A DNA stretch of 64,000 bases from an uncultured delta proteobacterium (GTDB lineage: Bacteria; Desulfobacterota; Desulfomonilia; UBA1062): NCBI GenBank assembly GCA_963785235.1, contig CAWAUM010000003.1:64001-128000 (forward strand). The letters are read 5' to 3'. Positions within the stretch are counted from its first letter, which is position 1, and the number at the start of each line of letters is the position of its first letter. Both the position numbers and the translations under genes were made by a program. Positions 24,911 through 29,503 of this stretch are shown here, piece by piece. The notes below the pieces were generated by a model. That model saw only the letters and a program-made list of their open reading frames with translations, made no database searches and had not been told where the DNA came from.

Positions 24911-25948
24911 CTATGAGAGGATAACAGCCTCTCCACCCTTGGGCCGCGTCTCGATATAGCCAATGATATCAGCAGATTCCTTGAGACCCTTCAACCTGAG
25001 CATTACATCATCTGCATCTTTTGGAGAAACGACCAACACCATGCCGACACCCATATTGAAGGTCCTGTACATCTCTGTATCTTCGATCTTCCCGACATCC
25101 TGAATAAATCGAAATATGGGCGGTATGCCCCACGAACCTTTCTCGATAACAGCTGTTGATCGTGCAGGGAGTACCCTGGGGATATTGTCGATAAAACCGC
25201 CTCCGGTAATGTGGACAACGCCTTTTATCTCAAAACCCCTAATGATATTGAGCATACTTTTAACATAGATCCTTGTGGGTGTAAGAAGTTCTGCAGCTAA
25301 TGACTTACCCAGATCCTCGAGATAATCATCAATGCGCATCTTAGCACGATCGAAGAGGGCCTTCCTCACCAGAGAAAAACCGTTACTATGCAGCCCTGAT
25401 GAATGTATGCCGATAAGGACATCCTTTGCAGAGATACGGGATCCATCGATGATCTTATCACTATCAACTACACCGACGCCGAATCCTGCCAAGTCATACT
25501 CGTCCTCTCGATAGAAACCAGGCATCTCGGCGGTTTCACCGCCGATAAGCGCGCAACCAGCCTCTTTGCACCCGCTTGTAATGCTTGATATAATGACCTT
25601 GGCGCGATCCAGGTTGAGTTTGCCGGTGGCAAAATAATCGAGGAAAAACAGGGGCTGTGCCCCAACGACGATGAGATCATTTACTACCATAGCCACAAGA
25701 TCAATTCCGATACCCTCATGGTTGTCTGCCATGGATGCGATTTTCAGCTTGGTACCAACGCCATCGGTAGATGAGACAAGGATGGGTTCGGTATAATTCC
25801 TGATGTCCAGTTTAAAAAGGCCTGCAAATCCACCTATACCACCGATGACCTCAGGCCCATGGGTAGACTTCACACTTGATTTGATAGCCTTGACAAGTAG
25901 GTTCTGTTTGTCAATATCAACCCCTGCATCACGATAGGTCAAAGACAT
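24911..25948 (-). CDS. purM: AIR synthetase
   Basis: TYRDAGVDI, TDGVGTKLK, GGETAEMP, HSNGFSL, HITGGG. Confidence 0.97.
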   Translation of the reverse strand: MSLTYRDAGVDIDKQNLLVKAIKSSVKSTHGPEVIGGIGGFAGLFKLDIRNYTEPILVSSTDGVGTKLKIASMADNHEGIGIDLVAMVVNDLIVVGAQPLFFLDYFATGKLNLDRAKVIISSITSGCKEAGCALIGGETAEMPGFYREDEYDLAGFGVGVVDSDKIIDGSRISAKDVLIGIHSSGLHSNGFSLVRKALFDRAKMRIDDYLEDLGKSLAAELLTPTRIYVKSMLNIIRGFEIKGVVHITGGGFIDNIPRVLPARSTAVIEKGSWGIPPIFRFIQDVGKIEDTEMYRTFNMGVGMVLVVSPKDADDVMLRLKGLKESADIIGYIETRPKGGEAVILS

Positions 25949-26010
25949 CTATACCCCCAACTCTCTACCTACTATATGAGAATATTGAGCTAGTCAATCC
26001 GGCATTAAAG

Positions 26011-26047
26011 AAAAAAAAGATGGCGGTTTGGGCTTTTCCCCGCCATC
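26011..26047 (-). terminator. Intrinsic terminator on the minus strand
   Basis: GATGGCGG...CCGCCATC stem followed by T8 on the minus strand. Confidence 0.85.
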
Positions 26048-26114
26048 CTTAGAGGAGGTAGATAGGAGTTATATGTCTTTGAAGAAGTTTTTCCGTTTAC
26101 TTTCTCTTTTAATA
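26011..26114 (-). ncRNA. Candidate sigma54-dependent small RNA (~100 nt)
   Basis: Bounded by a sigma54 motif and a T8 terminator; no ATG-initiated ORF; contains ACTCCT and ACCTCCT. Confidence 0.55.
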
Positions 26115-26124
26115 CCCTTCAATG

Positions 26125-26141
26125 AGCAATGGTCATGCCAA
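26125..26141 (-). promoter_or_regulatory. Sigma54 (-24/-12) promoter
   Basis: TTGGCATGACCATTGCT versus consensus TGGCAC-N5-TTGCW with exact GG-N10-GC spacing. Confidence 0.75.
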
Positions 26142-26235
26142 CAATAATGACAATCATCTATCAGGTTGCATTTAAAGATAGTTTATGATGATCAGCAGGA
26201 TTCTCCCCTGAATTATCGCTATTAATGACATCCTC

Positions 26236-26288
26236 AGGTGTATATTAAATATACATCATGACTATACAGGTGTATAAAAGATATACAC
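26236..26288. promoter_or_regulatory. Tandem palindromic enhancer (UAS) sites for a sigma54 activator
   Basis: TGTATA-N5-TATACA at 26239..26255 and 26271..26287, 32 bp apart, both preceded by CAGG. Confidence 0.7.
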
Positions 26289-26378
26289 TTATTCTTCGAA
26301 AAATAACCTCCTCTGCGTGGAGAATGCTTATCAGAGGACTGTGGCATGAGAGTTGTAAGGCATATACCGGATTATTTT

Positions 26379-28136
26379 ATGGATAATAACAACTCAATAC
26401 ATTCCAAAAAGGCCTGGATCAAAATATCACCCTGGGTGATCATGGGCTCCCTCATCGTGATGGTGCCCATCTTCATTTTCACCACCATGGAGAGCATACG
26501 GACCCAGAGGAAGAACATGTACCACATGCTCAGCGAGAAGGGAGATACCCTTATCCGATCTTTTGAAGCCGGTACCAGAACGGGCATGATGGGCCAGGGC
26601 TGGAGCGGGGCCCAGGTTCAGCGCCTCATCATGGAAACAGCGGAAGAGCCGGATATCCTCTATATCCTTATAACAGACAAGGATGGAAAGATCGTTGCCC
26701 ATAACCAGCCCATGAACATCGGCAAGACATACGGGCTCGACATCGACCGGGCAAGGCTGAGTCATATCCTCAAATGGAGGGTTATCAAGGACGAGAAAGG
26801 AAGGCAATCCTTCGAAGTGTATCGAAGGTTTCATCCCTCCCGGAGCGGGATGATAATTCTCAAACGTAAACGACCTCTACGCGACTGGTTTTACCCACAC
26901 ACCCTGCCGCAGATGGAAAGACCTCCGGTACAGAGTATCTACATTGGGCTGAATATGCAGCCGGTTGAGCAGATTATCTCAGAGAGTATAAAACAGAGAA
27001 TCTTCCTGGCGGTAATCCTGTCCATGTATGGACTGCTTGGGATTGTAGCCATTGTCATTGCACAGAATTACCGGTCCACAAAGGCCTCGTTATCCAGGAT
27101 CAAGGCCTTTTCTGATACGCTGGTGGACAATATGCCCATAGGCCTCATTTTTATCGATCAAGAAGGGAACATCGTTACACTCAACGACGTATCTGAAAGT
27201 CTTCTTATGGTCACCACGGCTGATACCGCTGGCAAAAAGGCCGAAGAGGTGCTCCCCGAACAAATATCAAAACTCATTGAAGATATTCAGAACCCCCATG
27301 ACATAGCCGTGCGTGACCTGCGTATTCCTCTCCTGGACAAAGTCATGGTGTATGAAGCCAGCGCAAGCTTCCTTACCGATGAAGACCGCACGTTCCTAGG
27401 CTATATCGTGCTGCTGCGCGATATTACAGAGATCGAACAGCTGAAAAGGGAAGTGGAACGCAAAGAGAGGCTTGCTGCCATCGGCAGCCTTGCAGCCGGC
27501 GTCGCCCATGAGATCAGGAACCCGTTGAGCTCCATCAAGGGTTTCGCCACCTACTTCAAGGAGCGCTACCGTGATATCCCGGAAGACCAGAGAATTGCCG
27601 GGATCATGGTTGGCGAGGTTGAACGCCTCAACCGTGCCATCAGCCAGCTTCTGGATCTCTCCCGCCCAATGGATCTGAGGATGAAGGAGACCTCCCTGGT
27701 GGAGTTGGTAAATCGTTCTCTCGCAATGATTGAGAAGCAGGCTTTGGAAAAAAACATCGCGATTGACCGTTCGGGGCTTCCGAGTGACCCCTGCTACGCA
27801 GATATAGACCCTGACAAGACAGGACAGGTACTGCTCAACCTCTTTCTCAACGCCATGGAGGCCATGACAGGAGGGGGAACCCTTACGGTGGCCATCAGGC
27901 ATGATGAAACATCCTCCAGGTTTTCCATCCACGTGTCAGACACCGGAGGCGGGATCTCCCAAGAAGACCTCCCCCACATATTTGACCCATATTTCACCAC
28001 AAAACAGTCCGGAACAGGCCTCGGGCTTGCCATTGTCCATAGAATAATAGAGGCCCATGGCGGTGAGATCAAGATTGAAAGCACGCCCGGTCAAGGCACA
28101 ACGGCCATACTGGGCATACCTGAAGCAGGAGCGTGA
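26379..28136 (+). CDS. Sensor histidine kinase, ZraS/HydH-like (start 26346 or 26379)
   Basis: LSEKGDTLIRSFEAGTRTGMMG, two TMs, PAS, AGVAHEIRNPLSSIKGFA, GTGLGL. Confidence 0.88.
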   Translation: MDNNNSIHSKKAWIKISPWVIMGSLIVMVPIFIFTTMESIRTQRKNMYHMLSEKGDTLIRSFEAGTRTGMMGQGWSGAQVQRLIMETAEEPDILYILITDKDGKIVAHNQPMNIGKTYGLDIDRARLSHILKWRVIKDEKGRQSFEVYRRFHPSRSGMIILKRKRPLRDWFYPHTLPQMERPPVQSIYIGLNMQPVEQIISESIKQRIFLAVILSMYGLLGIVAIVIAQNYRSTKASLSRIKAFSDTLVDNMPIGLIFIDQEGNIVTLNDVSESLLMVTTADTAGKKAEEVLPEQISKLIEDIQNPHDIAVRDLRIPLLDKVMVYEASASFLTDEDRTFLGYIVLLRDITEIEQLKREVERKERLAAIGSLAAGVAHEIRNPLSSIKGFATYFKERYRDIPEDQRIAGIMVGEVERLNRAISQLLDLSRPMDLRMKETSLVELVNRSLAMIEKQALEKNIAIDRSGLPSDPCYADIDPDKTGQVLLNLFLNAMEAMTGGGTLTVAIRHDETSSRFSIHVSDTGGGISQEDLPHIFDPYFTTKQSGTGLGLAIVHRIIEAHGGEIKIESTPGQGTTAILGIPEAGA

Positions 28137-29503
28137 TGATGGCAGTCAGCATGAGGAGAGACATCCTGGTAGTGGATGATGACTTCAGTCATCGAACCAT
28201 GCTCAAAACCCTGCTTTCAGGATGGGGATATGAGGTCAGCGAGGCTGACGACGGTCAGGTGGCAATCGATATGGTCCAGGAACGGCCCTTTGATCTGATC
28301 CTCATGGACATCCGCATGATCAAGGTATCAGGACTGACAGCCCTGGCAGCCATCAAGGAGATCAACCCTTCCATCCCTGTCCTCATCATGACCGCTTATT
28401 CCTCCATCGACACGGCAATCGATGCCATAAAAAAGGGCGCCTATGAATATCTGACAAAACCGCTCGACTTTGATGAGCTGCATTTGAAGATGGAACAGGC
28501 AATGGATCACAACATGCTCAAGGAGGAGAATCGTCTTTTAAGAGAGCTCGTGGGAGAGCGCTTCGAAACCGGGAATATCATAGGCAGGAGCCCTGCCATG
28601 ATCCGTCTTCTTGAAACTACGGCCAGGGCCTCATCATCGGAAGCAACGGTTCTTATCACCGGAGAATCCGGGACCGGCAAGGAAATGATCGCCGGCGCCA
28701 TCCACTTCAATTCCCCCCGGAAAGACCACCCCTTCATCAAAATGAACTGTGCCGCCATTTCGGAAGGATTACTCGAATCCGAACTATTCGGACACGAAAA
28801 GGGCTCATTCACCGGGGCGTTACGCCGCAGGGAGGGCCGCTTCAAACAGGCACATGGAGGCAGCCTCTTCCTTGATGAAGTCTCTGAAATGCCCCTGTCC
28901 ATGCAAGTCAAGCTCCTGAGGGTGCTCCAGGAAAAAGAGATCACCCGGGTCGGCGGCGAAGAGGTGATCCCGGTGGATGCCAGGATCATTGCTGCGACCA
29001 ATAAAGACCTCCCTACCCTTGTCAAGAAAGGTCTTTTCAGAGAAGACCTTTACTATCGGCTCAATGTAATCAACCTTTCCGTCCCGCCGTTAAGAGATCG
29101 CAGCGAGGATATACCTGTTCTGGCTGAACACTTTCTCAAAATGTTTGCCCTCAGGAACAACAAACCATTGAAAGGCTTCTCACCCCAGGCCATGGACCGG
29201 CTCATCAAGTATCCATGGCCCGGTAACGTGCGCGAGATGATGAATACGGTTGAGAGTGCTGTAGTCCTGTCCAGCTCGGACTACCTGAGGGATGAGGATA
29301 TCCCTGTTTTCCGGCAGGAAGAATTATATAAGGCTCCCCTGGAAGGGGGCGGTTCCGCTGAGTTCAGCCTGGACGAGATCGAACGCCTCAGCATATTGAA
29401 GACCCTGGGATCAGCCCAGGGAAACAAGAGCGAGGCTGCGAGAAAACTCGGCATCACGAGAGCGACACTGCACAAGAAGCTGAAGAAATATGGAGTGCCC
29501 TGA
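28133..29503 (+). CDS. Sigma54-dependent response regulator, ZraR/HydG-like
   Basis: REC, GESGTGKE, ESELFGHEKGSFTGA, WPGNVRE, Fis-type HTH. Confidence 0.92.
   Translation: MMMAVSMRRDILVVDDDFSHRTMLKTLLSGWGYEVSEADDGQVAIDMVQERPFDLILMDIRMIKVSGLTALAAIKEINPSIPVLIMTAYSSIDTAIDAIKKGAYEYLTKPLDFDELHLKMEQAMDHNMLKEENRLLRELVGERFETGNIIGRSPAMIRLLETTARASSSEATVLITGESGTGKEMIAGAIHFNSPRKDHPFIKMNCAAISEGLLESELFGHEKGSFTGALRRREGRFKQAHGGSLFLDEVSEMPLSMQVKLLRVLQEKEITRVGGEEVIPVDARIIAATNKDLPTLVKKGLFREDLYYRLNVINLSVPPLRDRSEDIPVLAEHFLKMFALRNNKPLKGFSPQAMDRLIKYPWPGNVREMMNTVESAVVLSSSDYLRDEDIPVFRQEELYKAPLEGGGSAEFSLDEIERLSILKTLGSAQGNKSEAARKLGITRATLHKKLKKYGVP

Follow-up and report, generated by a model that had tools for sequence, protein, structure and literature searches.

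The ~103-nt unit on the minus strand of the window (the whole 64,000-nucleotide stretch of DNA analysed here, from an uncultured relative of sulfate reducers) is probably a gene for a trans-acting small RNA (sRNA), predicted to be transcribed with sigma-54 as an output of a ZraR-like activator; the unit descends from the 3′UTR of a zraP-like gene. The promoter, the enhancer-like sites and the core of the predicted RNA are conserved in genomes in which the zraP-like coding sequence (CDS) is gone, and the RNA is one member of a multi-copy family. Reviews on sRNA origins discuss how sRNAs can arise from genes in decay or from the 3′ ends of mRNAs. Within the open-access literature searched, the RNA family itself, its tie to a ZraPSR-like system, and the passage from a 3′UTR to a primary sRNA gene via loss of the parental CDS are new. 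No paper in that literature pairs Desulfomonilia with ‘small RNA’, and the matches listed include neither an sRNA freed by loss of its parental CDS nor an sRNA from the zraP 3′UTR; zraP is unmentioned in the review PMC9438474.

If this reading is true, selection has kept the sensor, activator, enhancer sites, promoter and RNA while the chaperone gene was discarded. The locus would then be a natural experiment showing that a stress system of this kind can do without its protein output but not without its RNA, and would document a route from a 3′UTR-derived sRNA to a stand-alone sRNA gene. Sigma-54-dependent sRNAs and envelope-stress sRNAs from 3′UTRs are each known from a few model gamma-proteobacteria, and would be joined here in a distant, uncultured lineage. 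Beyond what the model systems offer, this lineage has sister genomes with and without the parental CDS, and a promoter, enhancers and RNA core that appear to be still under selection. Whether the non-coding arm of a CpxP/ZraP-type response can be its primary output, and how an sRNA gene gains independence from its parent mRNA, would thereby become testable questions.

Organisation of the minus-strand unit

The features of the locus, and the two further copies of the RNA in the same genome, are given in Table 1. The -24/-12 element TGGCATGACCATTGCT is the sole match without mismatch to TGGCAY-N5-TTGCW within the 64-kb window, and 33 exact sigma-54 consensus sites are present in the whole genome. 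When up to one mismatch is allowed, the window contains 8 matches against 5.9 expected, so the promoter is informative only as an exact match. Exact copies of TGTATA-N5-TATACA number two in the 3.9 Mb genome, both of them at this locus, with centres ~108 and ~140 bp upstream of the -24 GG; these predicted distances fit the ~80-150 bp expected of upstream activator sites. As judged by the GC position of the -12 element, transcription would start near 26114, and the predicted minus-strand RNA would extend over ~103 nt, from ~26114 to 26011.

Table 1. Features of the locus and of sibling RNA copies in the same genome (G000). Plain coordinates are those of the window; contig coordinates are given for the siblings.
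Feature	Position	Strand	Basis or remarks
-24/-12 sigma-54 promoter TGGCATGACCATTGCT	26140..26125	-	exact TGGCAT-N5-TTGCT consensus
Two enhancer-like palindromes TGTATA-N5-TATACA	26239-26255 and 26271-26287	.	32 bp apart
5′ part of predicted RNA (zraP-like 5′UTR remnant and deletion scar)	26088..26114	-	poorly conserved
Unpaired conserved core, candidate seed CUUCUUCAAAGACAUAUAACUCCUAUCUACCUCCUCU	26051..26087	-	orthologue alignments; unpaired in consensus fold
Hairpin AAGGAUGGCGG...CCGCCAUCUU with U8 (intrinsic terminator, family signature)	26011..26050	-	invariant among orthologues
purM own putative promoter and leader, TTGACT ... TATAGT ... GGGGG before ATG	25949..26000	-	hexamers read from sequence
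purM (AIR synthase), downstream neighbour outside the unit	24911..25948	-	Pfam AIRS, AIRS_C; synteny
Sensor histidine kinase, ZraS-like by best match	26346..28136	+	Pfam sCache_3_2, PAS_4, HisKA, HATPase_c
Sigma-54-dependent response regulator, ZraR-like by best match	28133..29503	+	Pfam Response_reg, Sigma54_activat, AAA_lid_14, HTH_8
Second sibling RNA (L063; orthologues L064, L066-L077)	G000:C5:266159-266242	-	most widespread type
Third sibling RNA (L078; also L079, L081)	G000:C5:72398-72466	-	AACCUCCUCUU motif; different terminator GGGAGGGCUGCAAUAGCCCUCC

The core carries two motifs that resemble an anti-Shine-Dalgarno (anti-SD) sequence, ACUCCU at 26069..26064 and ACCUCCUCU at 26059..26051, and is followed by a hairpin with arms at 26050..26040 and 26026..26016 and by a T8 run at 26018..26011 (all on the minus strand). 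The terminator stem is strong, GC-rich and 10 bp long, with U7-U8. This anatomy agrees in full with the first-pass annotation of the DNA, which had described the palindromes, the promoter, a stretch lacking an ORF, a GC hairpin with T8 and the anti-SD motifs.

Inside the predicted transcript there is no ORF of at least 10 codons with an ATG, GTG or TTG start, except for one from an ATG in the terminator stem that runs off the end, and the same scan of the predicted RNAs of all seven CDS-less relatives (103-147 nt) revealed no conserved ORF. A small-ORF reading of the unit was rejected, as these RNAs carry no conserved ORF. A 5′ hairpin with a conserved CUCUUCA box was also considered; the box is mostly paired in 12 of 15 sequences, but the energies (-4 to -14 kcal/mol) barely beat those of shuffled sequences, and no claim is made for such a hairpin.

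Origin of the unit in the 3′UTR of a zraP-like gene

A DNA search of 41 related genomes, all of those compared in this work being uncultured MAGs, identified 16 loci that keep the kinase gene and the intergenic unit, 15 from the genus and one from another genus. Exact TGGCAY-N5-TTGCT and at least one palindrome are present at all 16. The loci differ in the distance between the promoter and the CCUCCU/terminator, which is 82-124 nt in seven genomes, including that of the window, and 580-712 nt in nine; among the three CDS-less lineages the distance is 82, 93 or 124 nt. Directly behind the promoter, nine of the 16 loci have an ORF of 150-169 aa and seven have none. The encoded proteins have an N-terminal hydrophobic leader (a putative signal peptide, read by eye) and an LTxxQ motif. 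All six of the nine that were scanned pass the cut-off of PF13801 (Metal_resist/LTXXQ), and ZraP is the best match for both of the two proteins compared with NCBIfam, at only 37-44 bits against a cut-off of 200. The ribosome-binding site of the zraP-like gene in these relatives is AAGGAGG. In the nine CDS-bearing relatives, the RNA core begins 28-110 nt after the zraP-like stop codon and ends in the same terminator. As judged by this synteny, the predicted RNA of the window is the 3′UTR of a zraP-like gene that has here lost both its ribosome-binding site and its CDS.

Pairwise alignments of CDS-less with CDS-bearing loci cover only two parts, the first 15-30 nt past the promoter and the final ~35 nt ahead of the conserved core, and the exact deletion breakpoints are not recoverable from them. 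In a tree of purM DNA (14 rows; L020 and L024, which have no adjacent purM, were left out), the seven CDS-less genomes form one clade (support 96/95) that is sister to a CDS-bearing genome. Given this single clade, one deletion is the parsimonious history.

A zraP-like gene deleted between the promoter and terminator had been named in the first-pass annotation as a finding that would refute the sRNA, and such a gene is present at nine of the 16 syntenic loci. The functional reading nevertheless stands, because the piece retained is a conserved 3′UTR element that is more conserved than the CDS: across eight CDS-bearing genomes of the genus, nucleotide identity averages 80% in the 3′UTR core (74 nt) and 55% in the CDS, and the protein averages 42%.

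Two of the loci in relatives have additional features. At L018 (G014:C61), two identical zraP-like 3′UTR cores at ~1277-1359 and ~1504-1586 (oriented), 227 nt apart, flank a run of N; they reflect a genuine tandem duplication or else an artefact of assembly at the scaffold gap. At L020 (G010:C135), an insertion of ~1.4 kb separates the zraP-like terminator from purM.

Conservation after loss of the coding sequence

Column identities were counted across three CDS-less lineages (L009, L012 and L015), which have become widely divergent since the deletion. Identical columns make up 15/17 of the -24/-12 element, 40/51 of the palindrome region and 61/77 of the RNA core (29/39 in its unpaired part and 26/30 in the hairpin). 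The spacers, with 14/79, 19/96 and 22/58 identical columns (about 18-38%) and many indels, and the four-fold sites of purM, of which 30/146 are identical in all three lineages, are near saturation by comparison. Conservation of the promoter, palindromes and core against this background is hard to square with decay, and the comparison of these sequences supports purifying selection, acting after CDS loss, on all three elements. The alignment of orthologous intergenic regions that had been proposed as a check on the unit thus finds these three elements kept and the 5′ part of the RNA not (14/79 columns identical, 46 with gaps), and an unconserved 5′ third counts against an sRNA. In the consensus fold of the orthologues, only the invariant terminator is recovered, with 0 compensatory pairs.

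A non-functional relic is unlikely. The promoter and 3′UTR would in that case be deletion debris and the RNA noise, with the two-component system kept for other targets, as might be expected from relatives that carry a gene between the same promoter and terminator and from a transcript with an unconserved 5′ part. However, the exact palindrome is confined to this locus, which leaves the regulator with no other visible target; the same module occurs as independent genes elsewhere; and the promoter, palindromes and core have been retained to the extent given above despite near-saturated four-fold sites and spacers. On these sequence grounds, the data favour a working sRNA over a relic. Public RNA runs (a metatranscriptome with 5% of the sampled words, and three runs from another study) match only conserved stretches of purM, with 88-99% likeness and from related organisms; they give no coverage of 25961-26900 and have no bearing on expression either way.

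A multi-copy RNA family

A covariance model, R1, was built for the 82-nt core from 16 sequences that include the window copy. Members of the family were recognised by a ACCUCCUCU-type motif followed after 1-4 nt by the hairpin GGAUGGCG...CGCCAUCC and a U-tract, with a score of at least 27 bits. R1 thus provides a covariance model for an RNA family absent from Rfam. Of 52 genomes of one bacterial family, 43 (28 of the 34 of high quality) have between one and five copies (1-5 each), whereas the 70 genomes examined of its sister family, with which it makes up the class, have none.

The genome of the window has three copies. That of the window scores 95.8 bits but is among the 16 sequences of the model, and independent support comes from the other copies, at 53.5 bits (C5:266159-266242) and 31.1 bits (C5:72398-72466), and from the loci of the pattern scan described below. 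A BLAST search of the RNA against its own genome returned the window copy only, and the paralogues surfaced with the covariance model alone. The ACCUCCUCU motif is common to the paralogous copies.

The second sibling has a near-invariant 3′ half (UUUAACCUCCUCUUAAGGAUGGCGCGUCCUAUGCCCUAACCGCCAUCCUAUUUUUUU; UUUAACCUCCUCUUAAGGAUGGCGCGUCCUAUGCCCUAACCGCCAUCC with U7) and conserved 5′ boxes AUGCAUCCUUUU ... GCAUCAAAAUA. It is present in 14 of 15 genus genomes, including that of the window, where it lies between a gene for a multihaem/TPR protein and a gene with no Pfam match, and it is the top match in most other genera of the family. No sigma-54 promoter was found at this type. The second match in G013 is a different copy that is sigma-54-driven, as judged by its promoter.

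The third sibling is located between lon and a gene for a FYDLN_acid-domain protein, has no adjoining activator gene, and is preceded at 32 nt by TGGCACACGTTATGCA, a sigma-54-type promoter with one mismatch. L078 and its relatives L079 and L081 match 10/11 sigma-54 consensus positions 32-39 nt upstream, and all 11 positions are matched 45-59 nt upstream of the stand-alone members L140 (= L065, G013:C288) and L129, the perfect promoters being TGGCATACCCATTGCT at -59 and TGGCACGGGGATTGCT at -45.

Weaker R1 matches of 27-30 bits, L082-L085 in G002, G003 and G004, have two anti-SD-like motifs, ACCUCCUAAUUACCUCCCUCUU, and a GGGGAGCUGCAAUGGCUCCCC terminator, and may represent another sRNA family built on the same logic.

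The distribution of the family was also assessed by a pattern scan of 185,579 species genomes, which returned 102 stretches, 80 of them compared with R1. Fifty-five of the 80 match R1 at 43 bits or more, each of them from a MAG whose title reads Deltaproteobacteria, Desulfomonilia, Syntrophaceae, Thermodesulfobacteriota or Bacteriovoracaceae, the last probably mislabelled. Stretches from Streptomyces, Collinsella and similar genomes gave no R1 match. A search against Rfam, which had also been suggested for the locus, yielded no family: there are no matches at gathering score in the 64-kb window, only chance-level matches (E of at least 2) under permissive settings in 25700-26500, and the paralogues and one CDS-bearing locus have no match with an E of 1 or less.

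Across 51 distinct family members, 94.3% of cells in the hairpin pair and both-side changes occur in 7 of its 10 pairs, in a model-fitted alignment of related sequences and with no such covariation among orthologues alone. None of 500 shuffles reaches this level, and slid controls pair in 40-66% of cells. The conserved core as a DNA-level site or a micropeptide gene is hardly credible against these data. High conservation without covariation among orthologues is what a DNA site might show, but hairpin, U-tract and orientation are retained in every unlinked paralogue, and compensatory changes preserve the stem. For a micropeptide, the frames are all closed or lack a start and the upstream spacers have indels; on the opposite strand, a 25-codon frame of the window genome stops after 3 codons in G004, as read from the sequences.

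The claim of an ORF-less sigma-54 unit with an sRNA output in the first-pass annotation is supported in part, by selection after CDS loss, by the multi-copy family and by the covarying hairpin, its 3′UTR origin having been missed. More tentatively, it is plausible that a lineage-specific family of sibling sRNAs, with an anti-SD seed, a signature hairpin and varied promoters including several of the sigma-54 type, makes up a post-transcriptional layer of this uncultured Desulfomonilia-type family, and that the ZraPSR-like system has a non-coding arm that was born as a zraP 3′UTR and outlived its protein partner.

Predicted mode of action and the purM neighbour

In the mechanism proposed, the ZraR-like activator would bind the two upstream palindromes and sigma-54 RNA polymerase would transcribe from ~26114. 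In the presumed ancestral state, still found in most relatives, the promoter would drive a zraP-like mRNA, for a periplasmic chaperone, with the module in its 3′UTR. This module would consist of a C/U-rich unpaired stretch ending in ACCUCCUCU, followed by the conserved hairpin and U-tail. A deletion of ~0.5 kb, most simply a single one in the ancestor of the seven-genome clade, took the ribosome-binding site and the whole CDS, after which the enhancer-dependent promoter would transcribe the module directly. The anti-SD-like seed most likely pairs in trans with the ribosome-binding regions of mRNAs (AGAGGAGGU) and would block their translation. The RNA would then be the non-coding arm of this envelope or metal-stress system and a counterpart of CpxQ in the Cpx response. 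That the RNA was kept after its parent was lost argues for targets in trans. In CDS-bearing relatives, feedback on the parent mRNA is possible, given its AAGGAGG ribosome-binding site.

Target prediction, another check proposed in the first-pass annotation, was unspecific, because the seed is essentially anti-SD: 1989 sites reach -16 kcal/mol or lower with no outstanding target among them, the purM leader being high in the ranking. The exact complement of the seed, the 9-mer AGAGGAGGU, is found in 12 translation-start regions, several of which precede small proteins that look membrane-bound by eye, an impression to which no statistics are attached. The RNA seed (26050-26065) is also complementary at 13 of 16 positions to the purM upstream block (25961-25976), partly over the putative -10 hexamer. 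The predicted duplex with the purM leader has an energy of -31.2 to -31.3 kcal/mol (z -2.9 to -3.5) in five of 14 genomes and of -25.9 kcal/mol (z -2.2) in a sixth, and the complementarity is absent in eight of the 14, including one CDS-less genome. The purM leader and the AGAGGAGGU start regions are leads only.

The RNA might instead be real and regulated and act by means other than blocking ribosome-binding sites, for example by titration of a protein via the loop UGCCCWA, as a sponge or decoy of its paralogues (as GlmY for GlmZ), or on the purM leader only. The hairpin and loop are conserved far past the needs of a terminator, across paralogues and genera, the seed is common to the sibling copies, and the complementarity to the purM leader, though imperfect, is long in six of the 14 genomes. 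Its absence from the other eight and its overlap with the putative -10 hexamer detract from a role at purM, and base-pairing sRNAs typically have such an unpaired C/U-rich stretch beside their terminator. A mode of action other than blocking ribosome-binding sites is judged unlikely.

The next gene on the same strand is purM at 14 of the 16 syntenic loci, L020 and L024 being the exceptions, and in CDS-less genomes it lies 62-96 nt behind the terminator U-tract. This proximity could suggest that the unit serves transcription only, either by sigma-54 read-through into purMN or with its terminator shielding purM, and the terminator within the conserved core could indeed have been kept simply to insulate purM. 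However, a purely transcriptional role is very unlikely. Read-through would have to pass the strong GC-rich stem and U-tract, and purM has its own conserved upstream block (41/51 columns identical across the CDS-less lineages), the putative promoter in which was missed by a simple promoter scan due to its 15-nt spacer. Shielding leaves the conserved promoter, the palindromes, the unpaired 37 nt and the unlinked copies unexplained.

Divergent two-component system and other genome factors

A ZraSR-like system beside the unit, as first annotated, is borne out by the best NCBIfam matches of the two divergent genes, which are ZraS for the kinase (392.9 bits, under the cut-off of 479) and ZraR for the regulator (527.9 bits, under the cut-off of 760). 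The kinase is intact, with 81-98% aa identity, in all five CDS-less genomes searched. The activator is full length without stops (84-93% identity) in G002, G003, G004 and G013, and is cut by the contig end in the CDS-less G011. The genome also encodes rpoN, a 463-aa open frame with a PF04552 match of 208.8 bits, and hfq is present.

Two more PF13801 (Metal_resist) genes are found in the window genome (G000:C12:182646-182978 and C1:68841-69203, both on the minus strand). No sigma-54 promoter was found at either and no exact palindrome was seen nearby, so they are not visible members of the regulon; a palindrome with one mismatch lies 2.8 kb from the C12 gene. These genes could compensate for the lost zraP-like gene.

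Two short motifs were noted at the start of the kinase gene. In its 5′ leader, ACCUCCUCUG (26306-26314, plus strand) can pair with the CAGAGG ribosome-binding site of the same gene (26330-26335, plus strand), probably by chance, as the motif is not kept in the close relatives G011 and G002. A sigma-54-like site with one mismatch, TGGCATGAGAGTTGTA (26342-26357, plus strand), overlies the start codon and its bases are conserved, probably a coincidence since they encode the conserved N-terminus G-M-R-V.

Comparison with known systems

The arrangement resembles in its logic that of CpxQ, an Hfq-dependent sRNA cut from the cpxP 3′UTR in Enterobacterales. In both cases the parent gene belongs to the CpxP/Spy/ZraP LTXXQ superfamily of periplasmic stress proteins and lies divergent from a two-component envelope-stress system, of which it is the most direct target, and the sRNA uses the terminator of the mRNA. 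In both, too, the 3′UTR is far better conserved than the CDS, as described for CpxQ in PMC9438474 and PMC4817254. Unlike CpxQ, the RNA described here has no sequence or Rfam similarity to it, has an anti-SD-like CCUCCU seed, and is associated with sigma-54 and enhancer sites in place of CpxR with sigma-70. With the CDS gone, it is predicted to be a primary transcript, whereas CpxQ is a product of RNase E.

The relatives have the layout of the ZraPSR system in Escherichia coli and Salmonella, in which genes for a kinase and a sigma-54 activator point away from a zraP-like gene that is preceded by a -24/-12 promoter. The system differs from ZraPSR in that the best NCBIfam matches to ZraS, ZraR and ZraP are all under the equivalog cut-offs, the kinase input is Cache/PAS, and the protein gene is absent here.

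Stand-alone sRNA genes with -24/-12 promoters, a two-component or phosphorelay activator, and sibling copies that have a common conserved seed are known from Qrr1-5 of Vibrio and GlmY/GlmZ of Enterobacteriaceae, the sigma-54 dependence of which is described in PMC10162802 and PMC3045617. The present family differs from these in having no Rfam match and in copies under differing promoters, only some of them of the sigma-54 type, with the window copy born from a 3′UTR.

A further likeness is to sRNAs of the RsaE/RoxS type in Firmicutes, the C-rich seeds of which are unpaired and pair with G-rich Shine-Dalgarno regions. Their sequence, phylum and promoter are unrelated to those of the present RNA, which carries two CCUCC-type motifs where RsaE/RoxS have UCCC/CCCC.
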